Source: a virus. From it: a stretch of DNA of 64,000 bases. Position numbers and translations under genes: made by a program. The notes beneath the pieces are model-generated. The model made no database searches. It was given only the letters and a program-made list of their open reading frames with translations, and was not told the origin of the DNA. The DNA is taken from positions 1 through 64,000 of the IMG/VR virus record IMGVR_UViG_3300034417_000014. One strand, 5' to 3'. Below are positions 3,492-58,800 of the stretch, piece by piece (the first letter of the stretch is position 1; every line of letters starts with the position of its first letter).

Positions 3492-3539
3492 TTACATAAA
3501 ACCTGTTCTTTAAAGGCCCAGACGTGCAGGATGTCTACT

Positions 3540-3749: not shown

Positions 3750-3773
3750 AATACTAGCCTACCATTATACACG

Positions 3774-4016
3774 TTAGTATTCGCCCACATAACTAATTGG
3801 TCTTGTGGGGCTATTGTTCCGCATCCGATCCCCATACTTGAGTTTGAGCATTAGCAGCCACTCTGATTTGCAAGGAGCTTTTATATAGTACGCAATGTTT
3901 TGCCCAGCTTTAAAGTAGACATAACACTCAACATCGTTGTTCATACATTCTTTTGCGAACGCAGGACCTTCTGATCTGGGTATCCGAACTATAAACTCTT
4001 GCTCAGCAGCCATCAT
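3774..4016 (-). CDS. Hypothetical protein, LK(Y/F)G family
   Basis: C-terminus WLLMLKLKYG. Confidence 0.75.
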   Translation of the reverse strand: MMAAEQEFIVRIPRSEGPAFAKECMNNDVECYVYFKAGQNIAYYIKAPCKSEWLLMLKLKYGDRMRNNSPTRPISYVGEY

Positions 4017-10811: not shown

Positions 10812-11099
10812 ATGGCAACGAAAGCAATTAAGAACTTTGTATATGAGTGCGTTGATTCGTTTAACGAAGTGCTGGCAAAGAGTACTTGCCCTCCAGATGT
10901 GCGCCAAGGTGTTATTAACTCGGCGCAAAAGGTTCTGATGCAGGCAGGCTTATACGAAGGCTTCCGTTACTTGCCAATACATGAAGTGCCCAAAGGTCAT
11001 CGCCCGGGAATTAACTTGTTAGCTGCATCAACAGATGAACAGTTTGACAACTGTGATGAAACCCGTGTACACTTTTTTGTAGGGCATTTGGCGAACTAA
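10812..11099 (+). CDS. Hypothetical early protein
   Basis: Cassette promoter at 10751. Confidence 0.75.
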   Translation: MATKAIKNFVYECVDSFNEVLAKSTCPPDVRQGVINSAQKVLMQAGLYEGFRYLPIHEVPKGHRPGINLLAASTDEQFDNCDETRVHFFVGHLAN

Positions 11100-11252
11100 C
11101 ATGATGAACTTATCCTTCATGATAGTTGTGTTCGCAGTCAATAGCTACGCTGCTGTCTTTTGTAAGAATAATGAACCATGGCTCCGTTGCATTAACGGGG
11201 CGTTGGCTGTATACTTTGCAATAGCAATACGCGGAGCAGTACATAACATATG

Positions 11253-11329
11253 GGGCCTTTAGCTCAGTTGGTTAGAGCAAACGACTCATAATCGTTAGGT
11301 CCTCGGTTCAAGCCCGAGAAGGCCCACCA
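11253..11329 (+). tRNA. tRNA with CAT anticodon, probably Ile2 (lysidine type) rather than Met
   Basis: GGGCCTT/AAGGCCC stem, AACGA-CT-CAT-AA-TCGTT, ACCA end; ileX-like sequence. Confidence 0.9.
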
Positions 11330-11348
11330 AACACAATAGGGGAACAAG

Positions 11349-11618
11349 ATGTCTGACGTAGCTGTAGTAAATGGTATCGAGTATAACTACTTTGTTCGTA
11401 ACAACGGCAAGAAGGATTACATCGCAGTATACCAGTCGGGCTATCCCAACACGCTGTTCCTTGCAGTAAACATTGACCACATCGCCCAGGAAGCAAGCAT
11501 TGATGCACTGGACTGTTCGTTTGATGCAGAATACAAAAGCATGTTCACAGAACGCTGCATGACTGATTACTACAGTAAAGTAGTCAAAGATGCAATACAA
11601 TTGGCAGAACTAGTTTAA
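11349..11618 (+). CDS. Hypothetical protein between tRNAs
   Basis: AGGGGA RBS. Confidence 0.65.
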   Translation: MSDVAVVNGIEYNYFVRNNGKKDYIAVYQSGYPNTLFLAVNIDHIAQEASIDALDCSFDAEYKSMFTERCMTDYYSKVVKDAIQLAELV

Positions 11619-20274: not shown

Positions 20275-20565
20275 ATGAACTACCAGAAAGTGAAACTGAA
20301 TAAAGGATTGCACAACGTAGTTGACAAGGCCACTGGCTTTGTTGTAGGCCAAGTCAAAGTCGTACAGAAGACTCCGACACAAGGCATTTGGAGCGGCGAG
20401 TTCAAAGTTCCATTGGCTGATGGCACCGTGGAGAATATCGTCGTACAAGGTGAACTTGGCAACACTGCTGCAAGCGTTATTCGCGCGTTTGCTGCATCCG
20501 TAGCTGACAAGGCTGTTGCACTGCCCCAACGTGTTACTTCGACGAATGTTGCCGTAGAAGCGTAA
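20275..20565 (+). CDS. Hypothetical protein
   Basis: Promoter at 20184; terminator follows. Confidence 0.75.
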   Translation: MNYQKVKLNKGLHNVVDKATGFVVGQVKVVQKTPTQGIWSGEFKVPLADGTVENIVVQGELGNTAASVIRAFAASVADKAVALPQRVTSTNVAVEA

Positions 20566-20578
20566 CACTTAGCAAGTT

Positions 20579-20606
20579 AAAAAGCCCGCCCTGATGCGGG
20601 CTTTTT
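20579..20606 (+). terminator. Rho-independent terminator
   Basis: AAAAAGCCCGC-CCTGAT-GCGGGCTTTTT. Confidence 0.85.
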
Positions 20607-20772
20607 ATTGACTGCAATTCCAGAACTCTATTACTATTTGCTATATGCTTGTTACAAAACGTTACTTGACAAAGTAACAAATGTGTTACATAATTGCACA
20701 CAGTTAGATAAATAACTATACGCCACAAGCGTAAACAAACGTAACATTAAACTTCAAAAGAGGGAACAAAAA

Positions 20773-28945: not shown

Positions 28946-29029
28946 CCTATTTTGTTGCAACAAAGTGGTAGACATTTGGGAGATTGCTTGCTATAATGTT
29001 TACACACTAAAGCAAAGCGGAGCTACAAA

Positions 29030-29245
29030 ATGAAAGTAACTGTAAATAACACTACTGTAACTGTCAACAACAAAGACCTCCCCAGCGCGGGGAACGTTAC
29101 GCTGCTGCAAAATACTGTAGAAGTTGTTGACGACGAGCTGCGTTTTGTTGTAGTATGTAACCCTGGCTCGCGGGAACCCAAGCGCCAATATGCTTGCGCG
29201 TTCACAATGCACGGGGAGCTATTAGGCTACTTTACAGTTAATTAA
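29030..29245 (+). CDS. Hypothetical early protein
   Basis: Cassette promoter at about 28968. Confidence 0.7.
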   Translation: MKVTVNNTTVTVNNKDLPSAGNVTLLQNTVEVVDDELRFVVVCNPGSREPKRQYACAFTMHGELLGYFTVN

Positions 29246-29344
29246 TTTACAAAAGTCAAGCACTTTATGTTGTGTAAAGTGCTTGCTCTTCCACTTTCGT
29301 TCCGCTATAATGCTAACACACAAACAGCAAAGCAGGGCCAAAAA

Positions 29345-29509
29345 ATGCAACAGCAACTTACAGTTCAAGATTTCGAAATCGACCTGCAAAAACTTGCTAT
29401 CCGCTACAAGTCCAAAAACGTGCAGCGCAAAGCAGCGGGCCGCCTTGTTATTTCATTCTACGCACACATTGCCCCACAATGCAAGCAAATCATTGCCGCT
29501 AAGTATTAA
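29345..29509 (+). CDS. 54-aa protein, paralogue of 37188..37358
   Basis: QDF.ID and YAHIAPQC shared. Confidence 0.7.
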   Translation: MQQQLTVQDFEIDLQKLAIRYKSKNVQRKAAGRLVISFYAHIAPQCKQIIAAKY

Positions 29510-29601
29510 AAACAAAATGCAGGCACTGTAAAAAGTGCTTGCTCTTCCACTTTCGTTCCGCTATAATGTTTACACACTAAACAACAAGGGAACACAACAA
29601 G

Positions 29602-29790
29602 ATGCCTACTGTATACGCGCAGATTGCAGCATTGCTTAAAAACACAACAGCAGAGCTAACTACAGAGGAAGTACGCGAGATGCTTGCAGACGGGGACACT
29701 GCAGACTTGTTAGCGCGTGTTACGTGCAATATACAAGACGAGGACATAGTTGCGCAAGTAGAGACGCTTGTAGAGCAAGCAACAGATTAA
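29602..29790 (+). CDS. Small acidic early protein
   Basis: Cassette promoter at 29539. Confidence 0.7.
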   Translation: MPTVYAQIAALLKNTTAELTTEEVREMLADGDTADLLARVTCNIQDEDIVAQVETLVEQATD

Positions 29791-29863
29791 AAAGTGGTAG
29801 ACAAGCGGCAAGGACGCTGCTATAATGTTTACACACTAACAGCAGCGCAACGGAGCAACAACT

Positions 29864-30223
29864 ATGTCGTACACGGAATCTTATACCTACGTCGAGGCAC
29901 AATCTACGCTAACTAATGCCCAAGTGCTTGACTTCTGCAAAACCTTGCAATTGCAAGCGCCTGCTATCAACGCGCATAAAATTATGCAAAAAGCAACCAA
30001 AGTCTACGACCTGGACGACGACGTTATAGCATTAAGCAACGCCACAGTCAAGACAATTATGCAAGTCCTCAACCTTACGGAAGAGCAATTAAGCTGCCTG
30101 CATAGCGAGTTTAGTTTTAACAGCTCTACCGCCGAGGTTGACAGCGACCTAATATTTGTGCGTCTGCTACGCGACACTAGCAAGTACATTTCGGAATGGG
30201 AGGCTATTGTAGCAGACCAATAA
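29864..30223 (+). CDS. Acidic early protein
   Basis: Cassette promoter at 29798. Confidence 0.75.
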   Translation: MSYTESYTYVEAQSTLTNAQVLDFCKTLQLQAPAINAHKIMQKATKVYDLDDDVIALSNATVKTIMQVLNLTEEQLSCLHSEFSFNSSTAEVDSDLIFVRLLRDTSKYISEWEAIVADQ

Positions 30224-32363: not shown

Positions 32364-32677
32364 ATAGTGGTAGACAAGCGGGGGAAACCCCGCTATAATG
32401 TTTACATACTAAACAAGTGGAGCAAAGCAAATGGCACATACATTTACAACTTGGAATGCTTATGTAAACAATCGTAAGATTGACAGCGCGCATTACTTGT
32501 CGTCCATGACCAAAGAGGACGTGACCAAAGATATGCAAGTGTGGGCAGATTATTTCCTCCCTGTCAAGAAGGCATCCAAAATTGTAGTGCGCAAAGCCCG
32601 CAAATAGTGGTAGACAAGCGGGGGAAACCCCGCTATAATGTTTACATACTAAACAAGTGGAGCAAAGCAAATGGCAC
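32362..32677 (+). repeat. Exact 76-bp direct repeat of the promoter cassette (32362-32437 and 32602-32677)
   Basis: AAATAGTGGTAGACAAGCGGGGGAAACCCCGCTATAATGTTTACATACTAAACAAGTGGAGCAAAGCAAATGGCAC twice, 240 bp apart. Confidence 0.95.
32431..32607 (+). CDS. 58-aa early protein (not in track)
   Basis: MAHTFTTWNAYVNN...VVRKARK, between the identical cassettes. Confidence 0.7.
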   Translation: MAHTFTTWNAYVNNRKIDSAHYLSSMTKEDVTKDMQVWADYFLPVKKASKIVVRKARK

Positions 32678-32880
32678 GCAACATGTTAACATTGGAAACA
32701 GTACACGGCGTAATGTTTTGCAAGCTGGGAGCAAAGCGTCCAACCCCAGCGCAAGCGGCTACAGCACTGGAACAACTGTCCCCAGTAGTATACGCTAAAC
32801 AAGTTTTGGGCGTACAGCGGGCAGCAGACAGCACTACAGCAGCGGTCCTGCGCTACTTGGAAGCAATTAAAAACGGTTAA
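32671..32880 (+). CDS. Hypothetical early protein
   Basis: Cassette promoter at 32611. Confidence 0.7.
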   Translation: MARNMLTLETVHGVMFCKLGAKRPTPAQAATALEQLSPVVYAKQVLGVQRAADSTTAAVLRYLEAIKNG

Positions 32881-32959
32881 GAAAGATGCAATAAGTGGTA
32901 GACAAACGAAAGTTTACCACTTATAATGTTTACACACTAAAGCAAACGAGTAAACAAAT

Positions 32960-33178
32960 ATGTTTCAAATATCCGGCTTTTACTTAGACCAAAAATTGGT
33001 TGACTTGTTCGACAAACTCACAGCAGTGCCAAACGTGCAGGCAGGGCAAGTGGCAGCGGGTATGAACGTGGCGTTGGGACAATTGACCAACTGCCGCACA
33101 ATCCAAACTGCAAAGGACTTGACTTCTTTTGTAGAGGCAGTTGAACACTTTAAAGAAAACGAAACAGAAAAAGGTTGA
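32960..33178 (+). CDS. Hypothetical early protein
   Basis: Cassette promoter at 32899. Confidence 0.7.
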   Translation: MFQISGFYLDQKLVDLFDKLTAVPNVQAGQVAAGMNVALGQLTNCRTIQTAKDLTSFVEAVEHFKENETEKG

Positions 33179-36604: not shown

Positions 36605-36931
36605 TTAAAAGTTATTTAAAGTAGGTTTGCATTGCAAGTGCGCAAACTGTACAAAATGTGCTGCATACAGCTCTTTTTGGTCGGCTTCGTCGTGGTGGAC
36701 GATTGGGCTAAGCACACTACAAACACTAAACACAGTTTCAAACAGTAGGTCATATTGGTCGCTGGGTAGTTGGTCTATGTACGCTGCAAGTCCCTGGTCG
36801 TAGTGCTGCAAGTATTCTACTAGGGAGCGATCGCAAGCCCACCCGTTAGTAACGACGCTATCCCCTGCTTGCTCCGACATGTTGACAAAGTATACGCTAC
36901 GTGCTATTGCTACGTTTAACAATGCGTCCAT
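36605..36931 (-). CDS. Acidic hypothetical protein, the only well-supported leftward gene in the early region
   Basis: Divergent promoter TTGCAT-16-TATAAT (37012-37039), AAGG RBS, terminator downstream. Confidence 0.7.
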   Translation of the reverse strand: MDALLNVAIARSVYFVNMSEQAGDSVVTNGWACDRSLVEYLQHYDQGLAAYIDQLPSDQYDLLFETVFSVCSVLSPIVHHDEADQKELYAAHFVQFAHLQCKPTLNNF

Positions 36932-37187
36932 TTTTTTGGCCTTTTTTAAAGTAAAATTAAACAACTTTGTTATACAAAACAGCTAGTTGCTTACTGCTTT
37001 GTATGTTGTTTATTATACAGTAATGCAAAAACAATGCAAGCGTTTTTTTGCATTTTTTTGCATTTATTTTCACTTTTCTAGGGAGGCACGCATAAAAAAT
37101 AAAGCAAAATAAAGTAAAATAAAACTTGCAATAAAGTGTAAACGCGCATATAATGTTTACACACAAACAGCAAAGCAGGGCCACAAA

Positions 37188-37358
37188 ATGCAAAACACAA
37201 ATACGCTTAACATACAAGATTTCCAAATCGACCATTCTAAAGTCGCCTGCGCGCATAAGCAAGTAACAAAGCAAAAAAGCATTTTGCGCAAAATTATTGC
37301 TACGCACTATGCACACATTGCACCTCAATGTCAAGCGTATTTAAAAACAATACGTTAA
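37188..37358 (+). CDS. 56-aa protein (not in track), paralogue of 29345..29509
   Basis: MQNTNTLNIQDFQID...YAHIAPQC; promoter TTGCAA-17-TATAAT at 37126. Confidence 0.7.
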   Translation: MQNTNTLNIQDFQIDHSKVACAHKQVTKQKSILRKIIATHYAHIAPQCQAYLKTIR

Positions 37359-37451
37359 AAAATAAAACGCAAGTAGCGTAAAAAACTACTTGCGTTTACA
37401 CTTTAGTCCCAGTATAATGCTTACACACAAACAGCAAAGCAGGGCCACAAA

Positions 37452-38015
37452 ATGCAAAACGCACAACAAGTAGCAAACATTGTAGCAGCTCTTTTAAACA
37501 ACGTGTCAACTACTTTTGCGCAAGTTAGCTATAGCACAAAAGTTGCTACAGCAGCAGCGCACAAAGCTGTAAACATACAAAAACACGTTGTCGCTAACGT
37601 GCAATTGTTTAGCAATATCAAAGCTGCAACAAGCGTTTTTACTAATGCTGTTAAAAAAAGCGCAAGCGCAATTGCAAGCAATAATGCAGAGGACGTAGCA
37701 CAATTTACTGCGCAAAGCAACTACTTTACACACACAAATTGCTATAGCATTGTACAGCATAAAACAAACAACAACTTATACTTATATTGCATATACAACA
37801 ATGTGCAAAGTAGCGTATACACTATTAATAACGTAATTGCAACCAAACAGCAAGTTGCGCAATATTTAACAGCAAGTGCAGCAAAAGCTATGCTAGAGCC
37901 TAGCACAACTGTACACAACAAAGCAAGCAATATAACGCATAACGTAACAGTGCGTACTATTGCACTAAGCAACATTACTAGCATAACTGCAAACAAAGCG
38001 CAAGTTAATTTTTAA
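37452..38015 (+). CDS. 187-aa protein with extreme composition (no Gly or Trp, 1 Asp, 2 Glu, 1 Pro, 1 Arg)
   Basis: Promoter TTGCGT-17-TATAAT at 37390 with the same leader as 37188. Confidence 0.8.
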   Translation: MQNAQQVANIVAALLNNVSTTFAQVSYSTKVATAAAHKAVNIQKHVVANVQLFSNIKAATSVFTNAVKKSASAIASNNAEDVAQFTAQSNYFTHTNCYSIVQHKTNNNLYLYCIYNNVQSSVYTINNVIATKQQVAQYLTASAAKAMLEPSTTVHNKASNITHNVTVRTIALSNITSITANKAQVNF

Positions 38016-38136
38016 CTGTACAAGTGTACAGCACTGTGTATACATACAGTGCTGTGCATGTATACAGTAGTGTATGCCTATACAGTGTACGCCCATACAG
38101 CACTGTACATGTATACAGCACTGTACATGTATACAG
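38016..38136. promoter_or_regulatory. Tandem array of seven LexA (SOS) boxes
   Basis: Perfect CTGT-N8-ACAG at 38016, 38034, 38052, 38103, 38121; GTGT variants at 38070 and 38085; mostly 18-bp period. Confidence 0.8.
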
Positions 38137-38360
38137 TAGTAGCACGTAGCACACAGGAGAGGAGCTGTCAACCAGGACCTATGCGTAGCACACCAAAAAC
38201 AGAAACGCAAGCAAAAAATTAAATTTAATTTGCTTGCAAAGTGGAAAAAAAGGCATTATAATATTTTTATACTAAAGTGGAGATACGGTGAGACCTGGCT
38301 AGAATCCAAAAATGGTGGAATGGCTGGGGGGTAGGCTTGCTGCGCCACTGAAAAACCGTT

Positions 38361-38402: not shown

Positions 38403-38480
38403 CTACCCTTATAGCATAGCCCTGTGTCAACATTAGACTCACTGTTCTTGGTACACTGCGAAAATTTTTTACTAATTTTT

Positions 38481-38837
38481 ATGGAAACCGTGTATATGCC
38501 TCCTAACGTTAGAATGATCACATTTTATGACAAGTACTCTGAACAACTATCAGCCAAACGTCAAGAGGCTAGAAAACTGTTCCCGCTACTGTTATCCTTA
38601 CATCATATAGCATGGGCGGACCGTCCCCAGTTTCATGAACGTTTCCGGACGCACTACAGGGAAGCGGTTATTAACATTCCGGAAACTTCTGACAACGCTC
38701 CGTTTATACGCTGCAACTCAAAAGAAATTGCCTTTTTACTGTATATGCAGTTTGGCGTAGCATTGTGGGAAGACAGTTCCTTAAACGACACGTATACGTC
38801 AGACCCCAATAATTATCAGGATGGGTCCAAGCTGTGA
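38481..38837 (+). CDS. Hypothetical protein, LK(Y/F)G-like family
   Basis: KEIAFLLYMQFG; start uncertain. Confidence 0.65.
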   Translation: METVYMPPNVRMITFYDKYSEQLSAKRQEARKLFPLLLSLHHIAWADRPQFHERFRTHYREAVINIPETSDNAPFIRCNSKEIAFLLYMQFGVALWEDSSLNDTYTSDPNNYQDGSKL

Positions 38838-39130
38838 AAAATTCCGCGCCACAAACCAGTGTCTATTATTATGTCACTCTCGATGGCTTAAACGACAAAG
38901 TGTTAAGAGAATTCAAGAGTTACTTTTTGGGCGTGTCTCCAATAGCGGCAGCACTAACTGTAAACTGGCAATGGCATTCTCAAGTTGAGGATGAAAATAG
39001 ATATGTGCGTTATGGGAGAATTACTGTCACTGAATCTGACCGCATGTTCTTAAATTTGAAGCACGGTCTTAATGACCCTGACTTTACTAAAAAATGTGCG
39101 GGCTTACTTTACGAACGGGTGTGGTTATGA
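38834..39130 (+). CDS. Paralogue family B (RY.R....E.D.M.L.LK)
   Basis: RYVRYGRITVTESDRMFLNLKHG. Confidence 0.75.
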   Translation: MKNSAPQTSVYYYVTLDGLNDKVLREFKSYFLGVSPIAAALTVNWQWHSQVEDENRYVRYGRITVTESDRMFLNLKHGLNDPDFTKKCAGLLYERVWL

Positions 39131-39402
39131 AATATTTCTTTCTTAGGGCTTCTGCTAACTCCAGTAACGATTCTGAAGTGTTGCATTTTATTGAATCTGA
39201 TATTTCTGGAATTACTCCAATCCATATAGAAATATCTGAAGATAGATTCCTATCTTGGACAGAAGGATCTAATACTAGATATATTCGGTATGTTAGACTT
39301 ACCTTAACTGACACCGACTTTATGTATATGTCTTTAAAAGTTGCGCAACCCGCTACTTCCCGGATTGTTTCCGGATTGCATTTTAGACCCGTAAGGAAAT
39401 AA
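39127..39402 (+). CDS. Paralogue family B
   Basis: RYIRYVRLTLTDTDFMYMSLK. Confidence 0.75.
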   Translation: MKYFFLRASANSSNDSEVLHFIESDISGITPIHIEISEDRFLSWTEGSNTRYIRYVRLTLTDTDFMYMSLKVAQPATSRIVSGLHFRPVRK

Positions 39403-39403
39403 A

Positions 39404-39688
39404 ATGGCCCACGAATATTATGTCCGCTCTTATGTGGCTGATCCCGATAATTTAGGAGAAGTGTTTTCCTATAAATTTGTGCAGGAAGTTATTGTGGGCA
39501 TTGCTCCCCTAAAGATAGAACTGTCTAAGCCCAGGATGTTAACTGCCCACGGCACCTCCAATACTAGAAAATATGTTCGGTATGTTAAACTTACCTTAAC
39601 TAACGAAGACTTTATGTTGCTCAAACTTAAAGGTAAGGAATCCGCAGATGATTTAATAATATTGGATATGGACTATTATGAAATTTGA
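39404..39688 (+). CDS. Paralogue family B
   Basis: KYVRYVKLTLTNEDFMLLKLKG. Confidence 0.75.
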   Translation: MAHEYYVRSYVADPDNLGEVFSYKFVQEVIVGIAPLKIELSKPRMLTAHGTSNTRKYVRYVKLTLTNEDFMLLKLKGKESADDLIILDMDYYEI

Positions 39689-39980
39689 ATCCCAATATTA
39701 TTATATCCGCATACCATCTCGCATTGCTGAAATTGCTCCAGTTGCAGCAGTTGCGTTTAAAAAATTTAGTTCCGCCAGATGTGAGATATCCAACGAGTTT
39801 TTCCTAGCAATCCGTGATTCCTCTAGTGATGCGGCGTTTGTTAGATATGCCCGCATACTAGTTTCTCCCCAAGAATATATGCTGTTGACTTTGAAGAATG
39901 GCATCTGTTATAGTATAGAAAAGCCTAATAGCAATTGTGCTGGAATAGAGTATAATGATTATTGTATAGGGGAACTATAA
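39678..39980 (+). CDS. Paralogue family B
   Basis: FVRYARILVSPQEYMLLTLKNG. Confidence 0.75.
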   Translation: MKFESQYYYIRIPSRIAEIAPVAAVAFKKFSSARCEISNEFFLAIRDSSSDAAFVRYARILVSPQEYMLLTLKNGICYSIEKPNSNCAGIEYNDYCIGEL

Positions 39981-40295
39981 ATGGATAAGCCAGATCTGAA
40001 AACTTTCTGCTTTAGGGTAGTGCAAGCAGTTACTCCAGATCGAGCATATCTAGGCAAAGTAGATTGGGTGCCCAAAATTAAAGAAGTATTGGGCGAAGTA
40101 GTTCCACTCCAATGTGAGATATCTGAAAAGGAATATAATGTCCTGAACCAAGATTGGTCTGCGGGCTTTGCCAGATATGTTAGGTTGGTTGTTTCCGAAA
40201 CTGATTATATGTTTCTAGTGCTCAAATATACTGACGAATATTCCAAAACTCCTTTTTATAATGAAGGTATTAGATACCAGAAAGTCGATTTATGA
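39981..40295 (+). CDS. Paralogue family B
   Basis: FARYVRLVVSETDYMFLVLKY. Confidence 0.75.
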   Translation: MDKPDLKTFCFRVVQAVTPDRAYLGKVDWVPKIKEVLGEVVPLQCEISEKEYNVLNQDWSAGFARYVRLVVSETDYMFLVLKYTDEYSKTPFYNEGIRYQKVDL

Positions 40296-40594
40296 AATAT
40301 TACTATTGCTGTGCTTGGACTGATGTTAGTCCGGATGTCGACTTCCATGCCTATGAAAATGTTGTTAATGTATTTATTGACTGCTTTATAGGAGACAATA
40401 TTAAGCCAATAGCAGTGCAAGTTTCTGCAAAGACTTTTCCGGAAATTGGCCGAGATTATAGATTTGCATCTTATATTAAATTTACCTTGACAGACGAAGA
40501 TTATATGTATGTTAAGTTAAAGAAAGGTGACCCATATGAATCGGCAACTGCTGTCCACAGTATGGATTTTATTGACATAGAGATTCTAGAATGA
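40292..40594 (+). CDS. Paralogue family B
   Basis: FASYIKFTLTDEDYMYVKLKKG. Confidence 0.75.
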   Translation: MKYYYCCAWTDVSPDVDFHAYENVVNVFIDCFIGDNIKPIAVQVSAKTFPEIGRDYRFASYIKFTLTDEDYMYVKLKKGDPYESATAVHSMDFIDIEILE

Positions 40595-40863
40595 AAGAAT
40601 ATTATTGCCGCATCTCGATACCTGAGCTTAATCCGACTGTGGCCGAAGTTAAAGCCAAAGTCGAAGAAATTATTGGTCAGATAGAACCAATAACTATCCA
40701 GTTGTCCGTGGAGTATTTTTCCGAATGGGATGACCATGCGTATGCAATGTATATTAGGTTACTGTTGCAAGATATAGATTATATGCAACTCAAACTTAAA
40801 CGGGAAGATACTATTAAGTTTGCGCATTCTATTAAAACTTTGCAATACCGGAATTTAGAATGA
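40591..40863 (+). CDS. Paralogue family B
   Basis: YAMYIRLLLQDIDYMQLKLK. Confidence 0.75.
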   Translation: MKEYYCRISIPELNPTVAEVKAKVEEIIGQIEPITIQLSVEYFSEWDDHAYAMYIRLLLQDIDYMQLKLKREDTIKFAHSIKTLQYRNLE

Positions 40864-41153
40864 CTATTGAATATATTAAGCCATTCCCAGGGCCTAGTCT
40901 AGATAAAGTAAGTTGCCAAATGCTTGACTTTTTTGAAGGCATTGCTTATAAAGAATTGTGGATATCTTATGCTTACCTAGACAACGACTTTAGGCCGTAT
41001 TATTTTGCAACTGTTGTCCTCCAAGATGAAACTGATCTGTGCCTGTGCTTAATGAAGTTTGGCAAGGGAGAAAGCAATATGCAGTATACTGAGTTAAAGA
41101 TAAGTAGAATTGACGAGGCGTGGCTAAAAGAGTACCCGTATGAACGAACCTAA
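40860..41153 (+). CDS. LK(Y/F)G family
   Basis: DETDLCLCLMKFG. Confidence 0.7.
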   Translation: MTIEYIKPFPGPSLDKVSCQMLDFFEGIAYKELWISYAYLDNDFRPYYFATVVLQDETDLCLCLMKFGKGESNMQYTELKISRIDEAWLKEYPYERT

Positions 41154-41412
41154 ATTATATGCAGTGTATGTGTCTAAGGATGATGAAGCATCTTTCCAGA
41201 TATTTTGTCGCGACAATATTAAATGGCGTACTGTCCATTCGACTACTATAAATCCCCAAATGAAAGCTAGGAAGTATATTATAGAATATACCGATGCAGA
41301 AGATGCCTTCCTATTAAATTTAAGATATGGGAAGTCCCGTGTTATTAATGGGGAATTGTTAGATATGCTCAAGAGAAATTATTTCTCTAAAATTGTGTGT
41401 ACTCGAGACTAA
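41140..41412 (+). CDS. LK(Y/F)G family
   Basis: EDAFLLNLRYG. Confidence 0.7.
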   Translation: MNEPKLYAVYVSKDDEASFQIFCRDNIKWRTVHSTTINPQMKARKYIIEYTDAEDAFLLNLRYGKSRVINGELLDMLKRNYFSKIVCTRD

Positions 41413-41416
41413 ACTT

Positions 41417-41608
41417 ATGTCTAAAGCTAAAAGGAGATTTGAGATACCTACTGTGAAAGAAGAAGAGTTCTCAGAGTATCTCGAGTTGATTTTGCCCAAA
41501 GCCAAAGTATATAGATTCTGGGATCCAGGTAAAGATAATATTATGTACTATGTCTCAGACGATGACGAGATGGGTTTACTTGCCCTAAGATTAAAATATG
41601 ACAAATAA
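41417..41608 (+). CDS. LK(Y/F)G family
   Basis: GLLALRLKYD. Confidence 0.7.
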   Translation: MSKAKRRFEIPTVKEEEFSEYLELILPKAKVYRFWDPGKDNIMYYVSDDDEMGLLALRLKYDK

Positions 41609-41837
41609 TATTATTATGAATTCTTGGAAGCACCGAATGCAGTTTGTGTTTCCGTTTGGATCTAGTCAGGGTCAGGGCGATGCCATTGCCTTTAACGAGT
41701 ATGTAAAAGCTACTTTTCCCAAAGCTAAAATTTATTACGACGGCATTTTTGAATTTACTGTTGTCATGGATAATGACCATGACGCACTTGTACTAGGTAT
41801 AAAATATGGACACAGAAAAAAGACTCAGAATTATTAA
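41598..41837 (+). CDS. LK(Y/F)G family
   Basis: DALVLGIKYG. Confidence 0.7.
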   Translation: MTNNIIMNSWKHRMQFVFPFGSSQGQGDAIAFNEYVKATFPKAKIYYDGIFEFTVVMDNDHDALVLGIKYGHRKKTQNY

Positions 41838-42078
41838 AGTTGAAACCAGGAATGAGTATTGGTCTGCGACTGGGTTTCTCCAATCCCTAATAGGGGATGC
41901 TGACTATAACTTTGTATTCTCAGACCACTATGAAAGAGAATGCCAAAAAGAGTCGTATTATATGGTTTCTGGATATCCGCATTCCGACGGCGCTTTAATT
42001 ATAGTGCAGTCTTCTGACGATGATATTATGGAGCAAATTGACGAAAGGTTTGATCCTAAACTTCCCAGGTTTCTTTAA
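41806..42078 (+). CDS. Hypothetical protein (paralogue of the next gene)
   Basis: LRIIKVETRNEYW versus IRIIRADGNAEFW. Confidence 0.65.
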   Translation: MDTEKRLRIIKVETRNEYWSATGFLQSLIGDADYNFVFSDHYERECQKESYYMVSGYPHSDGALIIVQSSDDDIMEQIDERFDPKLPRFL

Positions 42079-42344
42079 TGAGTATTATAGGTATGTCCCC
42101 AAAGAAAGAAGAAATTAGAATTATTAGAGCAGATGGCAATGCTGAGTTCTGGCAGATTATTGGGAAAGTGCAAAAGATTATCGGTAGTTATCCATGGAAG
42201 GAAGCTATGTATTGCATAACTAAATCCCCAGCAGGCCAGACTGAGCTAGGATTGATTATGGTTATCTCATCTAATAAGAATGTTATATTGGCTGTTGATC
42301 TCCAATTTAATAGAATAATATGCCCAAGTAATGAGCTATATTGA
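42078..42344 (+). CDS. Hypothetical protein
   Basis: TAATG-coupled. Confidence 0.65.
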   Translation: MSIIGMSPKKEEIRIIRADGNAEFWQIIGKVQKIIGSYPWKEAMYCITKSPAGQTELGLIMVISSNKNVILAVDLQFNRIICPSNELY

Positions 42345-49817: not shown

Positions 49818-52800
49818 TTAGACATTTACTCCAGTTCCTGGTCTGTCTCTTAAAAATTCAGCTTGTTGTGTAGTAGACATCGCTAAACCGCCAATTGAAT
49901 TTTCCCAGAATGGAACATCTGCATTTGGAACAAACTGTAAATTATCACCAGATGTAACTTTTTTACCTATTGGATATGTAGTGTTTGCAGTTCCGTTTGG
50001 ATTTCTAGTTGCCGCAATACTTGTTCCGCCAGTGTGTCTAAGAACACCTTTTAATATATCTTTAGTGTATTCAACAGGTATCTCTTGTGTAGGATCAGTT
50101 GGGTTTGTTTCATATCTAATTACAGATGCGTCGTATTGTATTGCAACATATGTAATTCTTTCTCCACCAATCCACACAACTCCTGGATGTCCCATTGTTG
50201 GTTTCGGCAACAATGACGCATCCTCAACACAAATCTCCTGCGAGTCTTCTTCCAATTTTAAGAACAAGTATGTAGAATCCTCGTCACCAATTCTAGTAAA
50301 TGTTTTTGTGTCTTGTTCAGTAAGGTGCATTTTGAAACTTACTGGAGACAACTCATACTCTACAAGAATTTTTTGAGACATATTTGGATCCGAATCTTGC
50401 ACTTGCATGTGATGCTGTGCGTTAAATATCACCATATTTGAATTGTTAAATATTTTAGTGAACTCAGGTGTGTCATAATTTACATCCATTGTCTGGCCTG
50501 CGCCCAACGGTGTTGCTAATACAATCGCTGTAGTTTTATTAGGATACACTGCAAGAGTATATTCTACACCAAAGGTATACGTCGTTAATTTCCCATTGAC
50601 GAATATGCTTATTATGGAATCAGGCACAATGGCAACTGTTGTTAAGAACGTAGTTTCTGATCCATCGCCAACGAATGAATCCTGTGTTGCCATAGGAGTT
50701 TTTGGATAAAACCCTTGCATATACCCGCGATATCTATTCTTCAACGAAGTTCTTTCATAAGAAGGATTCGTTTGCGCTGCCAAATATGTTAATGTTGGCG
50801 TAACAACATAATCCCCTCCAGTGCCAGTATCTTTATTTTGGAATATAAAATTAGACACGCCTGTAGTAGTATCGTTCACAACATAAATGCGAACATCTGA
50901 CAAGCTGGATGGCAATAAGTATTTGCTCTTGTGTTCTTCTGGGGTTCCGCTGTAGTATGGAAAAATTAACCCAACATCGTTGTCATCCATCCCAGTATAG
51001 TTATCCCATTCTTCTCCGTCCCAGCCCGCTTCGTCATCAACAACTGCTATTGGTTTGCCGTCAACGAATACTACTTGATTAGTAGTGTTTCCGTCATAAT
51101 GTCTCGCATCGTCAGCACCGTAATATTGTCTTAGTGCGCCAATTCTATAAGATACAACAATTGTTGAATCATCAACAGGCACTTCTACAAACGAAAGTAC
51201 ATATTTTCCATCGGCCGACACATTTAAAATCCACTGTGTTGTGCCAGTTGCATCTTTTTGTGGAATCACAACACCGTCCACAGTAACATGGTCAAGTGAC
51301 ACACCTTGTCCCAAATTTTGCACTAGTACAAATTCAAATTTGACACCATCACCAAAGAAAGACTCATTTATTTTTCTTCCATTTGTGTCCACAGTTACAA
51401 CTACGTTTTCGGAAGTTCTGTAAACTGCAAGTTCATCGGTCATGCCAATATCGCTTGGAGTAGGAACAAATACACTTCCGTCTAATACATCATTTTCTAA
51501 CTGAACTTCAAAGTTGTGATCAGTAGTGTAGTGATATTTTATTAACACCGTGTTTCCATATGCAGGTGTAGTTGCTAGAGTAACGTATGTGTACCCTGGT
51601 CTTACAGAAGTTGTTGTGCTGACTGCTGCGCCATTGATAGTTGCAGAATCTACTTCGATCACATCATTGAATCTGTAAGTTGATGTTTCTCCATTAGCAA
51701 TATTTGTAAAGTCTAAGATTGTTTCTGGACCAACAGATGTCACAATGCGAGGAGTTACAATTCTTCTGTCCCATCCTGCAGATGACCATGGCTCTGTATC
51801 CCAACCAATAGAAGACAAATACTCAAACCGCTCAGCATCAATAATTTTTCCGCCGAACATTGCATTGTACTCTACTGAATACTCATAATTAAATGTTTGC
51901 AAATCCGCTAACTCTGCAACTGTTGCAGAATTTATTCCTTGTACTGTTGCGTATGAGGAATAGTTTATTGTGTTGCCTGTCGGGGCAAACGATAGCAAGT
52001 TAGTTGTGAGGTCAGTCCTAATGTGCAAATAGCTGTTTGCTGCACCAGAGTACACTGTAAACTGAGTAACTTTCTCAGGATCTGAAATTATAGATACGCC
52101 AGGAACATTCCAGCCGTACGTGTCCCAAGGTGAGCCGCCCCATCCTGTTTTTGGTGTTCCAGTATGTGCCAAGTCAATATCATAATTAACCACTTTAATA
52201 TCAGCAGGGTTTGTAATCTTCATATTTACTGAAGTAAATCTTTGCCCTGTTGAATTATATTGCAATCTCATTTCTTCAAGTGCAGTGTGGGTAAAATTAA
52301 CACCGGACACAACAGTGATGTTGTTAGACCCGAACGGCGGAATAACATCGAATATCACAATCAATTTTCCAGTTGTGGCATCTTCGTCAGTGTAATATTC
52401 ATCTCTATCTAATAGACGACCGTTAACATATGCTTTCCACACACTAGTGATGTCATCAAATACAAACGAATTATTTACTCCGTCTCCAGATTTTGTCTCA
52501 TCACCAAAGTAAACAAACATGCTCTTATCTACAAAGCCTGGCTGAACACTATCGCGTATCACGTATGTGCTGTAATATCTTGGGACATCTTTAGGCGGAT
52601 ATGCAGGATTCAATACTGCATGTGTATATCCATCGGAATCAGTTGTGTATGCTAACGAGTCCATATCCCATGCTGTGCCAGTTGCATAATCTATCGGCAA
52701 CGAGTATGAAACACTGTAGTCTCTAATTTTAGTCTGATATGGTTTAACTTCGTTAACATAGCTAATGAAGTCGCCAAACGAGTCTGGGGAATAATTTCTA

Positions 52801-55800
52801 TCGTGTGTTAATTCCTCTCCTGCTTGAGACAAGTTAATATATGTTGTTTTAAACGCCCAATCAATATCCTGCTGTTCAGAAAACGCATATGTTACCATTG
52901 CAAAGAACATGTTGTTTTTATAAACAATGTAATCGTTTATAAAAATTCGTCCACTCAACGCATCTAAGATTTCTCTAATTTCTAAATTTAACGCCATGTT
53001 GTAAGTGACTGTATAAATTGTAGATTTTAATTGCATTGCAGTTTTTTCTCTGCGAACAATAATAAACACGTTGTTTGCCATATCATAAGAGTAGTATGTT
53101 GAATTGTCTAACACATACACTTTTACTATGCCACCTTGTCCAAGATACTCTTTATCTGCAGAAGACAAATCGGACAATGACTCAACTTCCATTAACGGAA
53201 CTGTGTTAGTTTCATTATACCCAACTTCGAACCAGTCAACATATTCCCAGTAATCGTTAGTTGGCAAGTCTGCATTCCACAGTGGATCTATATCTTTAAG
53301 CTGTATAGAAATAAGATGAGAGTTTGCATTTTGAACAAACACTTTTCTTGCCATAGTGATATCTTCAAACCAAGTCTGTCTTGGACGTACACGGTTTCCA
53401 TATTTTTCAAATACAGACAGTTTTGGATCTGGAACAATTCTTCCCATCGAATCAAACCCAACTAAGCTATCAGTCATCTTAGCCCAGTATCTATCTGGAA
53501 TCAAAGACGATGCTTTGTTTTTGGAAATCAACTTCCACTCAACATGTTTTGGATTTTGATTTTTAGTAAATCTGTAATTAATTTGTATTACACTATCCAA
53601 GCTAGAAATGAACACATTTAAATTGTTAAAAATGTATTCATATTCATTAATAAAGCTGAACCACACATACCCGTTGCTTCTTGGATTGCTAATTAATCTA
53701 GAAACACTTAGCGCAGACATACTTCTGTGATTCAAGAATTGAGGCACAGTTGTTTTGTCTCTTACCCAGAAGAAGTACACAGACTTAACGCTGTTGTAAA
53801 ACGCATCATATGCAGAACGCACAACATAGTCAGTTGTGTTCTTCGGTGTTCCAGTTCCAGTATATTGTTCTGGAGGAACATCACTTGCTACCCATTCGTA
53901 AATCACAACTTCGGAACCCGGGAATAGTCTTCCCCAGTTTCCCATCATGTACGCGTCTGTCCCTTGCTCGTAATACAAGTATTTTGCTTTAGATGTATCC
54001 CACCACAAATGCCCGACTTCTCTGCTGTCGAAAGAATTACTGTCGTCTAGCATTGTTGGATCAGCTGCAACACTGTAGCGAGTTGGATCCATATCATTTT
54101 TATAAGTTAAATTCTTATCTGCGATGCCTGGGATGAACCCTTTGAACGGGTCATACACTGGGACGTCAATGATTGTTTTTCCTGTGTCTCTAGAGTAGAC
54201 GTGCATAATGTCAAACAGTTCGGAATCTACTAGTGGGCCTTCCTTTCTTGCAGGTGTTGTATAATTTCCACTTGCATACACTGCCCATCCTGCACCAGCG
54301 TTATCAACCCATGCTTTTGGTTCTCCGCTAGCTTGTGCGTCAGCGAGAGTTGAGAATCTAACATTTTTAAACACATACGCTTCCACTGCTATTAACGGTA
54401 TTACGTCAACAACTTTTCCATCAGCATCTTTTAATTCAGTAACATCTGAAATCGTTGCTGCATTTGTCGGAGTGTATGTGTATATGTCGTCGTTAAGAAC
54501 AACGTAGCCAGGCAATTGATTTTGCGCAAGACTTCCAGTGAACAGTTTTAATACAGACCATTCTCGGTTAATATAATTTGCATTTGCAACCCACACATAG
54601 TCACCGGCAGTTGGAATTTCTTTTTGTGTGTCTGCCCACAACGCTGGGAGTTTTGCAATGTCGTATGTTGTGAAGTCAATGTCGTCTAAATGAACATATC
54701 CTGCATTTTTTACAACAGTGTCAACTTTGCTAAGTGTTGTTAAAGGAACAAAATTAAGATATGATTTTTCAAATGGACGTGAAAGCCAACGGATGTTATC
54801 GTCAATATCAATAACAATCTTCTCATCTGTAGGATCATCAACTGTAATTTCATTTTTAGTAACTAGCAATGCAGTGTCTAACGATTCTGTTCCGTCAGCT
54901 TTAAAAATTGTAATGGTTGGCGTTTGCCCATATCCATTACCGGGGTTAGTTATCTTAATTGCAGTTAATTTGTTTTCAGTTAACACTAAGTCTGCTGTTG
55001 CAGCAGTCGTAAATGTGTCTCCCGAAACAGGTGTAATTTCTGCGTATGGTTTGCCAGAATAAACTTCAGTAGCATTTGTGATAATTGCTTCTGACACAAA
55101 TTTAGTATGTGATGGACCTTCTGGGAACACCAGTTGCACTAGTTGTGGATCTTGTTTTAATTCCGATCCGGAAATGCCAAACTCAATATAAGTATGGTCG
55201 TTTACAGATCCATATTCCCCTACTCTGAACGCCCACTCTTCATAAATTTCAGTGTTCTCATTTCCTTTAATAAATGTTGAACGCAACAATTTATCAATTG
55301 GCTGCACTGTTCCTTTTTCTGGAAGCATGCCTTTATAGAACGAGTACTGTGTGTCGCCTAGCAATTGCAAGTTATCGAGATAATCTCTGTTTTGATAACC
55401 AATCAAGTGCCGTGCTGTGTCTTCCATTTGTGGGTTATCAAGAGATACTTCACTGTTATAATAATCTCTAATTGAGTCAGTTAAGTTTTCAAAGTTAGGA
55501 ATTAATTTATTTCCAGAAATAATATACCCATTGGCTTCTAATTTACCAAACCAATTTCTAGATCTTAGCCCAATAACTTTTAGTCTCTTCTGTCTGTCCA
55601 TTAAAACAGGATCATACATAGTATCGTTAAACACTGTAGTATTATCAAATACGAAGATGTTTTCTGTTTCCTTTGTTGTAATTCTCAAGCAGTATACACC
55701 AACACTTTCAACTTTGCTACGGATAGATATAGTTTGGTCATCTCTAACAACATCAACATCTTTGGGAGATATCGAGTACCCGTATTGGTCAAGTATGTTG

Positions 55801-58800
55801 TATACACCAGTTTCAAACTTCTCAATACTAGTTGGGTATCCTTGAGATACTGTTAACGTAACATTGTCTGCAATCGGGCTAATACAAATAGTATTATTTG
55901 TTGACCAAGAAGTAGTAGTCCAAAATGCAAAATCTTTTCCTGCATTTTTCCAATCTTTAATTACATTAGTGTCGCCGTCAACTTGTGTAAAATCCCAACC
56001 TTCACTTTTCAAATAATCGCCGTAACTGATTAAGAAGTCAAACACTGCTTGCACACTATCAAATTTTGTGCCATATTCTACTGTGGTTACATTCTTAACA
56101 CCTTTAGTGCGGTATTGTAAATTATGTCCGCCGATGGATGGTAATGCTGACAGTTTTTTCCATTTACCTTCGCTAAATTTACTTACTGTTTGCACAGCAA
56201 GCGATTGATAAAATTGCGTGTTGTATTGAACAATGTCGCCGTCGTTATACGAAGCAGACGAACTATAAGGTCTGAAATTTGCATTTGTTCCACCAACAGA
56301 TAATGCAGTTGCTGGACTGTTGATGTCTCTTTCCAATATTTTGAAATATGGAGTCAGCACATCGTAGCCATACACTTCATACTTTGCATCTTCTGTTATT
56401 CTAACAACCACACCACTATACACATACTCTTTTAATGGCAAGCCAGTGTGTATTTTTGTATCAATGTTTTCAATTGGAACAATTAACCCAGTGTTTGTAG
56501 AACCTGTTGAGGTACCTTCAAAGAAGAATTGAATAGTGTCAACGTTTGTGAACCCAGCGTAACGATGTCCTAATTTTACAGTTAAGTTTCTTAAATAATT
56601 TGCAAAATCAACAGTTACATCTTGCCCAAGGAATAACAACCTGTCAGTGATGAACCGTTGGTATCCATGATTAATAACTTTTACTCCGTCAATAGTTTCG
56701 CCATGCACAGTCAACTCACTGTTAGATGATCTAGTGTATGTTGGAGAACTAATAAGTTGAGATGGATTAATTTCTGCTTGTTGTAAAGCATACGGATCCC
56801 AGCACTTTTCAGCAAACTGCGACGGACGCATTACGTGCATTTTTTCCATTATCACATAGCGATATTCAGAACTGTTCATCCAGGATTCTTCAACAGGGCT
56901 GTTATCACCAAACACCCAGTCTGCTCCGCGGTCAATTTCTGCCGGTAACACTACAATCCCAATAGTAGAAGGCTCTTTATTTGCTCCACCTGCATCAACT
57001 GGAATGTACGCTGTTAAGCCTGGTCTAACGAAGTGCCAGTTAATTCCAGCTCGATTACCCTGACGTATTAATCCTGCTTCTAAATCCGCCCACAATTTTG
57101 CATTGGTGCTGCCGTAGCTGCTGCCATATTCTTCTACCCACCAAGTTGGCTCTTCAGTAAAACCCAACATCTCCCAAGGTGTTAAACCTGGAGTAATAGT
57201 GTCGTAAAAATATTTATAAATGCCTTTCCAGTTGCCTGGCAAATCTTCATTTGCTGGACGGTAATTCCATGTCATCCAATTATCAGGATCATAACTTAAA
57301 TTAGTGGCGTAGTTTGCATTAATTTTTGTAACCCAACGCAAGAATGAAGAACGGAAAATATCGTTCGTCTCTGCCAAAGTAAACCCTGTGTCCCTAGCAT
57401 AGCCTGGGATTAGATCTGCCCAGCCGTGTAAGAAGTTGTAATCCACACGGAATTTTTCAACTAAGTTATTGTAAATTCTAATTTCAAAATCTAATAAAAT
57501 AGTATCTCGTAAATCAACATTCTCTGGACCTAAGGTTCCTGACATAACGCCATCCATGATGTCCTTCGGAGTGTAAATTGGCGTACGGGATCCGTCGTGG
57601 CCTACAATCACGTATGTTGGTGTAACGTATGTGCTGTCTAACAACATTTTAGGAACGCTCACTCCGTGACAGCCAATTTTTGTTGGCGTTGAAGGTATTG
57701 CAGCAGACAATGTGTCTTCGTAAAGTCGAACCACATAGTGACCTGGTGTAACAGCATAGTCTTGAATCTGTATAGTTATTGGGTTGCCTGGGTCAACAGT
57801 ATATTCTGAATCTAATTTCAGCAACATATCTTTGCCGTTCTCGACATAAAACACCAAAACACTATTTTTAAAATCAGCCAAATCTACATAGTTAGACAGT
57901 GTAAATTTTCCATCTAAAGTTGAGGATGATGCAAAAGTTTCTTCTTTAAATGAGTTTCCCCAAGCAAGCATATACGACATTGTAAATGCGCCGAAATACT
58001 CAGTTGTATTGTTAATTCTCTTAATGATCTCATTAAAAGTCTGATCTAAATGCAATGTGTTGATTTGTAATGCAGGCTTATAATGTTCTTTAGATAATTG
58101 ACCTGCAATTTTTACTAACTTATCTTTAAAGCGAGTGTACTCTGTAGAAGAGAAAGTTAGGGCCGACACTAAGTTAATGTTATTTGCAGATGCAAAAAAC
58201 ATAGACTTTAGCATTGGGTTTTCAGTTTGAAGAATGTATTCTCCTAAAGAAATGTCCCTTGCAGTATCACGGTAATTGTTTTTAGAACTAAGTGCGTCAC
58301 CTGTAAACCCAACTTGGTTTTCCATTATGCTAACAAAGTGGTTTGTTAATTCGTTTGCGCTATAAGTGTACACTTCCTCATTGTTAGGATTGTTTTCCAA
58401 TTGTTTTGGAATTTCGTAATATCCAGGTGCCGCTGGATCTAACAAATCTTTAGAATATGTTCTTACCTCTAACACGTCGTTCACTTGAAGTGTTTTATTT
58501 AAAGTAATCTCTCTTCCGTCAATATTAAAATCTGTGCCTTCATCTTTACTTATACCGTTCACAACAACGATAACGTCATTTCCAGATTCTAAAGTGTATT
58601 GCGGAGTAACACTCAGTGTAAATAGTTGAGGCAATGCTGCATCAACTATTACAAATCTATCAATTACTCTTTGTTTAGATACTGTTTTAGACACAATCCA
58701 TGACGTGTCATAAGTTGTACTTATTACGTCATTTGTCACCATGTCTATATTGGATTTTTTATAGTAATAGTATCCTGGGATTTCAACAAATTCTGCGCCG

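Follow-up and report, generated by a model that had tools for sequence, protein, structure and literature searches.

The stretch of viral DNA described here, comprising positions 1 to 64,000 of the IMG/VR virus record IMGVR_UViG_3300034417_000014 (a contig of 89,846 nt, the first 64,000 of which are referred to below as 'the window'), contains an island, extending from approximately 36,912 to approximately 38,140, in which the dinucleotides GA, GG, TC and CC are nearly absent. With R denoting a purine and Y a pyrimidine, the purged set can be written as GR and its complement YC; the island is composed in an alphabet of 12 dinucleotides, in which G almost never precedes a purine on either strand. 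This purge, which extends over two genes (encoding proteins of 187 and 56 amino acids) as well as noncoding DNA, is firmly established. As for its cause, the reading that we favour, and that we hold tentatively, at slightly short of an even chance, is that the island is kept free of a guanine modification that the phage itself would place in GA and GG contexts.

The purge is most readily quantified in the 564-nt gene at 37,452-38,015 (A225 C121 G90 T128), which encodes the 187-aa protein. In this gene GA occurs 3 times where base composition predicts 35.8, TC 4 times (27.4 expected), GG once (14.3 expected) and CC twice (25.9 expected), and the GC dinucleotide is found 60 times against an expected 19.3; the four low counts are exactly those obtained by hand in a preliminary description of this DNA. 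Across 36,930-38,150 as a whole, GA occurs 6 times (74 expected), TC 13 times (63), GG 9 times (30.5) and CC 14 times (51). When the observed/expected (O/E) ratio of the four dinucleotides was summed in sliding 300-nt windows, as that description had proposed, the island stood out against the whole contig: the contig mean is 0.87 (standard deviation 0.14), values of 0.06-0.44 are found at 36,901-38,100, and elsewhere just four such windows have a value under 0.55, with 0.49 as the lower limit. The island is thus the only one of its kind in the 89.8-kb contig. Its edges, at ~36,912 and ~38,140, are sharp, and the forbidden sites that are left over are concentrated at those edges, at two AGGG Shine-Dalgarno (SD) sequences and within 30 nt of coding sequence in the 56-aa gene (9 of whose 12 residual sites lie within 37,218-37,247). 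A 245-nt divergent intergenic stretch at 36,881-37,125 follows the same rule. Every NTC and every GAN has been purged, beyond TTC/GAA or GATC alone; TT is not depleted (O/E 1.37), GC is enriched 2.6-3.1-fold in island DNA, and the G+C content of this island is 0.366, as compared with 0.425 in its flanks.

The purge acts on the nucleic acid, and not on the protein. When the protein sequence of the 187-aa gene was held fixed and its codons were redrawn from genome usage, 48.8 forbidden dinucleotides were expected where 10 are seen, and the lowest of 2000 such synonymous resamplings contained 28. At codon junctions, the same resampling predicts 21.6 forbidden dinucleotides where 2 are present, and reordering the gene's own codons at random yields a junction sum that averages 25.9 and reaches a minimum of 16. 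The junctions of the 56-aa gene likewise hold 4 forbidden dinucleotides against 11.8 expected, and three control genes nearby proved normal or almost normal. Because these resamplings and codon-order shuffles expect far more forbidden dinucleotides than are found, the purge is explained neither by base composition nor by protein composition; together with the unpurged homologues described below, they support the earlier contention that selection on nucleic acid overrides the protein sequence here. The bias of the encoded protein, described previously as devoid of Gly and Trp, almost devoid of acidic residues and Pro, and rich in Asn and Gln, matches its counts (G 0, W 0, D 1, E 2 and P 1, or 4 D/E/G/P/W residues in total, with N 25 and Q 14).

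The 187-aa protein belongs to a large family, with at least 349 metagenome relatives at E<=0.01; the 119 relatives listed below a near-identical top match display 57-78% identity to it. The family alignment, in which similarity extends over the full length, contains 18 invariant columns, with core segments such as ANVQLF, YLY.I.N and VRTI.L. Across the 137 members that were compared for composition, the sum of D, E, G, P and W residues ranges from 0 to 34. In a quick maximum-likelihood tree, whose topology the odd composition may distort, the normal forms are basal and a clade of 122 rows (supported at 92 by the Shimodaira-Hasegawa-like approximate likelihood ratio test) is mostly purged, with several relaxed members that have regained D, E, G or P; the label 'purged' or 'not purged' changes 22 times on this tree, as compared with ~43 times when labels are shuffled. 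The purged state, along with intact open reading frames (ORFs) and sharp boundaries, has been retained in a clade whose proteins are by now as little as ~55% identical.

The substitutions by which purged members depart from normal ones were tabulated, using 82 purged members, at the eight columns that are conserved as D, E, G or P in 50% or more of 19 normal members. At conserved D columns the commonest replacement is N (183 of 328 cells), at the conserved G column it is N in 74 of 82 members, at the single conserved E column T is found in 59 of 82 and K in only 2, and at the conserved P columns A fills 91 cells; these replacements are not simply the products of transitions. Of the swaps that had been predicted, D to N and G to N were therefore found, whereas E to Q was not borne out at that E column. 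The concern that homologues at ordinary loci might share the bias is answered by the existence of unpurged family genes at L022/L006, L018, L019, L025 and L026 (among the 19 IMG/VR loci, here numbered with the prefix L, at which the state of the gene was determined), for which O/E is 0.73-0.93 and the protein contains 21-34 D/E/G/P/W residues. Collectively, these analyses show that the purge is old, is maintained by selection, and is costly to the protein. The protein nevertheless appears able to fold: an AlphaFold2 model built with 44 sequences (predicted local distance difference test score 94.7, predicted template-modelling score 0.87) indicates, with confidence, a globular alpha/beta fold.

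At other loci the family gene contains no forbidden dinucleotide at all (L010/L011, L016 and L017), nearly none (L012, L014, L020 and L021), or is partly purged (L009, L013 and L023/L024). The surrounding islands can be considerably longer than the one in the window, reaching ~3.2 kb in L010 and ~8.5 kb in L012. Scans of whole records from four relatives (G001-G004, the contig under study being G000) place the main island at the family gene in G001, G002 and G003, while in G004, a complete genome of 362 kb, the family homologue is unpurged and no island is found in the whole-record scan. Island G+C exceeds that of the flanks in 4 of 10 loci and is lower in the other 6. In addition, 6-bp palindromes that the restricted alphabet allows are avoided in islands (O/E 0.65 in 25 kb of pooled island DNA, as compared with 0.87 in 145 kb of flanks), and allowed non-palindromic 6-mers are not (O/E 1.01).

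At positions 1-1600 of L027, at a contig end, GG/CC have an O/E of 0.00-0.03 and GA/TC an O/E of 0.93-1.3; the island there has TTGACA promoters and a GAGAG SD, and its proteins contain D and E and hardly any G, P or W. The GG/CC and GA/TC purges are therefore separable. In L003, which is the same record as L012, the sense strand has neither TC nor CC in any of seven genes, and GA (0-30 per gene) and GG (0-9) remain where D, E and G codons are used, such that GR is more strictly excluded from the template strand than from the sense strand. Within the 8.5-kb island of this record, three small, strongly acidic proteins (encoded at 1636-2049, 2201-2500 and 3485-3901, with 21-29 D+E in 99-138 residues) keep GA for their D and E codons and have no TC, no CC and no proline; judged by composition, they resemble a DNA mimic. 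Most residual GG/CC at ~2600-9570 of L003 lies in conserved intergenic motifs, GCGCGGGTT..GCGCCCC, GGCCCCGCTGCTTACGTG and TGGGGCAC, which recur ahead of nearly every cassette and may represent a regulatory or recombination element. In L018, 750 nt at 10,851-11,600 are fully purged (O/E 0.0-0.1) in the neighbourhood of an unpurged homologue of the 187-aa gene, and islands therefore act as exchangeable cassettes.

The contig, which is ~25% complete as estimated by IMG/VR/CheckV, codes for baseplate, portal and major head proteins and for a protein of 3766 residues. The major head protein shares 80% identity with its counterpart in the Pseudomonas jumbo phage PA5oct, and positions 42.4-89.6 kb are collinear with 48-91.6 kb of PA5oct (~47 kb, with protein identities of 21-80%), which identifies the contig, by sequence comparison, as a fragment of a PA5oct-like (Wroclawvirus-related) jumbo myovirus. 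The ORF for the 3766-aa protein (49,818-61,118, minus strand), surrounded by tail and baseplate genes, has its own collinear counterpart at 51.3-60.7 kb of PA5oct, a gene with which it shares 39% identity.

PA5oct is reported to possess a terminal repeat of 39,080 bp, with 105 genes of which many are highly transcribed early (PMC7318152; MK797984.1). The right end of the island, at 38,150, lies close to the annotated end of that repeat (39,080), with collinear genes beyond both, and in L017 and L020 the island likewise lies between small early-type genes and a core block. Depths of the individual contigs in the likely source run amount to 19.1, 14.3, 21.5, 19.3 and 16.6 over 29.5-37.2 kb and drop beyond 37.2 kb to values of 11.4, 6.5 and 8.3; contig depth is not copy number, and this fall across the island is a weak hint, compatible with a repeat that ends there. 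No RNA run was listed among the public runs that contain the DNA, and two further runs, X2 and X3, contain parts of it only. Synteny with PA5oct thus makes a terminal, first-entering position of the island plausible in this phage, so that the suggestion in the preliminary description that the region enters first is credible without being proven. The presence of the family gene within 2 kb of a contig end at 6 of 19 loci was dropped as evidence for a terminus, because L023 and L024 share sequence and just one of them ends there.

PA5oct is reported, in a preprint, to have guanines modified 'in a GA and/or GG motif', to carry QueE- and PTPS-like genes, and to come under attack by modification-dependent END nucleases at an early stage of infection; its protein gp52 is reported to be an inhibitor of these nucleases (PMC12191111). 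In other phages, DpdA is reported to insert 7-deazaguanines at short motifs, strictly GA in the case of phage iggy (PMC10484667), and phage CAjan to display two distinct modification motifs (PMC7544227). The set purged from the island, GA and GG together with their complements, is the same as the motif reported for PA5oct. The two motifs of CAjan are reportedly GA and GGC. Modification motifs that differ between lineages would agree with an island such as that of L027, from which GG/CC alone are missing.

According to the reading that we favour, the clade would replace or decorate guanine in GA and GG contexts, and GR-free DNA would be the sole stretch of the virion genome without modified bases. 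Such an island would keep native sigma-70 signals (with TTGCAA in place of TTGACA, whose G would be modified), would offer host RNA polymerase an unmodified template, and would present nothing to modification-dependent nucleases; its genes could then be expressed first, or despite an attack on the remaining genome. Because it would be unmodified, the island would have to dodge ordinary restriction sites by sequence, and a stronger avoidance of palindromes in pooled islands, as described above, would be expected for the same reason. The loss of GA from -35 boxes in the island alone, and the stricter exclusion of GR from the template strand in L003, are also in keeping with this reading. Genes for FolE and PTPS are present in the relatives G001 and G004. 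In G004, a cluster at 62-66 kb (L048 2037-5950) encodes PTPS (QueD-like), three unknown proteins, a cysteine-dioxygenase-like protein and GTP cyclohydrolase I, followed by thymidylate synthase; its gene content makes this cluster a candidate locus for guanine modification, in which no transglycosylase is recognisable. We infer that the phage in the window modifies GR and that its island abuts a physical end.

A considerable number of observations weigh against this reading. TGT/DpdA, PTPS, QueC and FolE were not found in the contig, which represents ~25% of a genome, and TGT/DpdA (PF01702) was found in none of five records, including the complete G004 (the control matched 14 of 14 genomes, and a divergent enzyme is possible); 7-deazaguanine precursor genes were not found in G000, G002 or G003, all of which are fragments. 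G004 has FolE and PTPS and yet no island. PA5oct, for which GA/GG modification is reported, has neither a purged island (minimum O/E 0.34) nor a homologue of the 187-aa family, and modification alone therefore does not demand an island. Of the other early promoters of the same phage, 19 of 23 keep TTGA.., such that a modified G in the -35 box cannot be prohibitive. Across the whole of G000, palindromes with and without GR/YC are equally avoided (0.82 vs 0.85), and there is accordingly no indirect sign that GR-containing sites are shielded; in the island of the window alone, the avoidance of palindromes is weak (30 vs 35.7 expected, or 0.84). The island is leaky: forbidden sites number 10 in the gene for the 187-aa protein and 12 in that for the 56-aa protein, and in the former the residual TC+CC (6) and GA+GG (4) reveal no bias for GR on the sense strand. 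Finally, the islands of G001-G003 are not beside the genes that mark the repeat boundary in PA5oct, the neighbouring core block being a different one, and the step in contig depth, itself no measure of copy number, is not a clean 2:1.

The preliminary description had instead proposed that the island hides incoming DNA from host defences directed at short motifs, in a region that enters first and carries the earliest anti-defence genes, a reading that we consider rather unlikely. Many such motifs contain the purged dinucleotides: GG and CC occur in the protospacer-adjacent motifs (PAMs) of type I-F (CC) and Cas9 (NGG) systems and in GGCC/CCGG-type sites, and GA and TC occur in type I-C PAMs (TTC), in GATC and GANTC, and in Dnd phosphorothioate (PT) or DarT targets. 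An island such as that of L027, lacking only GG and CC, would look as if distinct threats act in different hosts; the added avoidance of palindromes in pooled islands and the syntenic placement of the island near the expected boundary of a terminal repeat are also in keeping with this proposal, as is a published, slight depletion of CC PAMs in P. aeruginosa phages (8.27% vs 8.74% CC; PMC12174588). Because every NTC and GAN has been purged, however, a cause in restriction-modification, PT, DarT or PAM recognition is not specifically supported (Asp codons, GAY, have been lost though they are free of GAA); what stands of the proposal is selection on nucleic acid and a plausible position at an end. 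The purge costs the protein five amino acids, and even so 36 of the 64 six-base palindromes can still be formed; a cut elsewhere in the genome would still be lethal unless entry were stepwise, and no single system is known to read GR/YC as such.

A constraint on mRNA, as opposed to DNA, appears improbable to us. Rho primary sites bind YC dimers, so that a YC-free transcript would escape Rho, and a transcript free of GA and GG would escape cleavage at GGAG by RegB-like enzymes, internal SD-like pausing, or a GA-directed mRNA ADP-ribosyltransferase of the CmdT type. A defence enzyme that acts on GA in mRNA has been published (PMC11618068). The strand-specific loss of TC and CC from all seven genes of L003, and the survival of GG mainly at SDs, are in line with such a constraint, and gene orientation does not exclude it because the purged set is its own reverse complement. 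It would require, however, two unrelated pressures that happened to be exact complements of each other; the -35 boxes and the intergenic stretch at 36,881-37,125 obey the rule too (read-through transcription of these being possible), and the 187-aa gene is about equally depleted for both classes. A mutational footprint, left by local hypermutation on both strands (through a YC-specific cytosine deaminase or C-to-T changes of the ultraviolet (UV) type at dipyrimidines) with purifying selection as a filter, is very improbable indeed. Signatures of YC to YT with GR to AR (APOBEC-type, UV) would deplete exactly this set, D to N (a transition product) is the most frequent replacement at D columns, and the island in the window is poorer in G+C than its flanks. 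Against such a footprint, GC dinucleotides are enriched, island G+C is higher than that of the flanks at several loci, conserved E has become T with hardly any K, conserved P has become A and not L, S or F, and the state, its edges still sharp and the ORFs uninterrupted, has outlasted a divergence of the proteins to ~55% identity. The enrichment of TT argues against avoidance of UV lesions, which was rejected on that ground. Avoidance of oxidation-prone GG/GA stacks, known from work on ionisation potentials, was dropped since it offers no reason to be local, and self-immunity, in which a gene would be protected from a GR-attacking product of its own, was rejected since unrelated neighbouring genes are also purged.

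Should the modification of guanine prove to be the cause, DNA hypermodification would carry a cost that shapes both the sequence of phage genomes and the alphabet of their proteins; motif-free islands could then serve to recognise modified phages, the motif concerned and the genes whose expression must come first. The large unnamed family of early proteins would then be a candidate counter-defence factor, and its natural pairs of homologues with and without D, E, G, P and W would provide material for studies of reduced amino-acid alphabets. If the host-defence reading is the true one instead, an undiscovered dinucleotide-reading defence is predicted. In its fullest form, which we regard as possible and on balance doubtful, our proposal is that giant phages with hypermodified guanine keep a native, 'clean' cassette of 12 dinucleotides and 15 amino acids that is readable by the host and unseen by modification-sensing nucleases, and that survives and is expressed first or during the attack; the 187-aa protein would be a new counter-defence or take-over factor, and a fold of ~185 residues that works without Asp, Glu, Gly, Pro and Trp would be a by-product.

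The island consists of two promoter-leader-gene cassettes and a downstream array of boxes (Table 1), and sits at the distal end of an early-gene array.

Table 1. Features of the purged island and its borders (positions in the window).
Feature	Position	Strand	Remarks
GR/YC-free island	36,912-38,140		near-absence of GA, GG, TC and CC on both strands
16-nt imperfect inverted repeat around the island, left arm	36,896-36,911		pair I8, 88% complementary
Promoter P1, TTGCAA-N17-TATAAT, GA-free -35 box	37,126-37,154	+	promoter scan
51-nt unit, copy 1 (-10 box, leader, AGGG SD, start codon)	37,149-37,199	+	repeat family D3
56-aa orphan gene	37,188-37,358	+	GA 2, TC 6, GG 0, CC 4
Palindromic hairpin, 13 pairs, between the cassettes	37,365-37,397		overlaps the P2 -35 box; terminator-like on the - strand
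Promoter P2, TTGCGT-N17-TATAAT	37,390-37,418	+	under the consensus-scan threshold; read from sequence
51-nt unit, copy 2 (-10 box, leader, SD, start codon)	37,413-37,463	+	repeat family D3
187-aa gene, 10 forbidden dinucleotides, 4 D/E/G/P/W	37,452-38,015	+	member of an uncultured jumbo-phage family
Five perfect CTGT-N8-ACAG boxes, LexA-operator-like, 18-nt period	38,016-38,136		restricted alphabet kept
16-nt imperfect inverted repeat around the island, right arm	38,135-38,150		pair I8

Of the 23 promoters of the form TTGNNN-N17-TATAAT in the early array, 19 begin with TTGA.. and 4 with TTGCTC, and the -35 boxes lose GA inside the island only; the two copies of the 51-nt unit are 96% identical, and the SD is AGGG in both leaders. 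The preliminary description had listed three altered -35 boxes together with this SD: the SD and the boxes TTGCAA (37,126) and TTGCGT (37,390) hold up, while TTGCAT, at 37,047 and 37,057, is present as sequence only. The hairpin between the cassettes could probably form in plus-strand RNA as well, because its stem is a palindrome. The inverted repeat that brackets the island may mark the boundary of a cassette, or may be a chance match.

The CTGT-N8-ACAG array starts immediately after the stop codon of the 187-aa gene. The window contains 8 such boxes (5 of them at 38,016-38,136) where 1.43 are expected, a number reached in none of 100 shuffles. Seventeen other loci were found to lack the array 3' of their homologues. 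An element linked to the SOS response, a repeat with a role at a terminus or in packaging, and a structured 3' end are all conceivable, and its interpretation as a LexA array that forms a conserved part of the system was rejected because it occurs in this window alone. Directly to the right of the island, on the plus strand at 38,424-42,340, lies a tandem array of ~12 paralogues of 90-137 residues with an O/E of ~1.0-1.2. Within the early array, the segments at 29,000-29,900 and 20,400-20,700 are partially depleted (four-dinucleotide O/E 0.49-0.6), as is 32,601-33,000 for GA/TC alone (O/E 0.38); such weaker depletions may represent islands in decay or in the course of formation.

Both proteins of the island are putative early effectors, and the anti-defence role suggested for them in the preliminary description would be a candidate function, to which no family, fold or homologue points. 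Searches of Pfam and PHROGs returned no match for the 187-aa and 56-aa proteins, for a 119-aa protein, or for three homologues. In tblastn and blastn searches of 50,697 phage records, with the low-complexity filter on, neither the island nor the 187-aa protein nor one of its unpurged homologues had a match. In species genomes the single 187-aa sequence finds no relative, and the alignment, when used as a query, finds one weak match of 47 residues in a Syntrophorhabdaceae metagenome-assembled genome. A profile search of the PDB with the protein retrieved only Cro (E 0.65). The structural model matches four uncharacterised phage proteins in BFVD at E<=1e-3; no match was found in the PDB by Foldseek at E<=0.001, or in the ESM Atlas at >=0.9, and in a wide VIA-align comparison the best Z score, 6.3 (YaeO, WYL and Sm-like small barrels), is below the caution line, so that no fold is named. 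The published anti-END inhibitor gp52 of PA5oct, a protein of 185 residues, is not similar (E 3.7). For the 56-aa protein, no homologue was found among proteins of near length in a 5.8-billion-protein index or in any locus compared, and the QDF.ID motif that had been described as conserved in it is not confirmed, there being no homologue for comparison.

The early regions of T7 and T5 display avoidance of restriction sites in the DNA that enters first. The island resembles them in that certain sequences are avoided locally, within early genes that lie close to a probable terminal repeat, and in the extra avoidance of palindromes in pooled islands; it differs from them in that four dinucleotides, and not sites of 4-8 bp, have been removed, in that its proteins lose five amino acids, and in that the phenomenon is tied to one gene family and not to a whole first-step segment. 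The long terminal repeat of PA5oct contains neither a purged island nor a gene of the 187-aa family, and the corresponding repeat here is putative; what the two have in common is a series of small genes on the same strand, with their own promoters, followed by collinear structural genes.

The depletion of CRISPR PAMs in phage genomes (PMC12174588; see also PMC4246573) is likewise a counterselection of a dinucleotide (CC, in the case of type I-F), which the GG/CC-only island of L027 resembles. As published, however, that depletion is genome-wide and small, whereas the purge described here is local, near-absolute and inclusive of GA/TC, and, since all NTC and GAN have been removed along with GG and CC, extends beyond TTC or CC and is not specific to a PAM. 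A literature search within one collection of papers returned no description of local islands free of GA, TC, GG and CC.

Motif-specific guanine hypermodification, as reported for the DpdA systems of iggy and CAjan and for PA5oct, differs from the present case in that motif-free islands are not described in the passages and abstracts consulted (PMC12191111, PMC10484667, PMC7544227). PA5oct itself has no island, DpdA/TGT was not detected in any of the five records, and modification in the phage of the window is predicted. The likeness lies in the purged set, which corresponds to the reported target contexts, in the PA5oct-like character of the phage that carries the island, and in the FolE and PTPS genes of its relatives.

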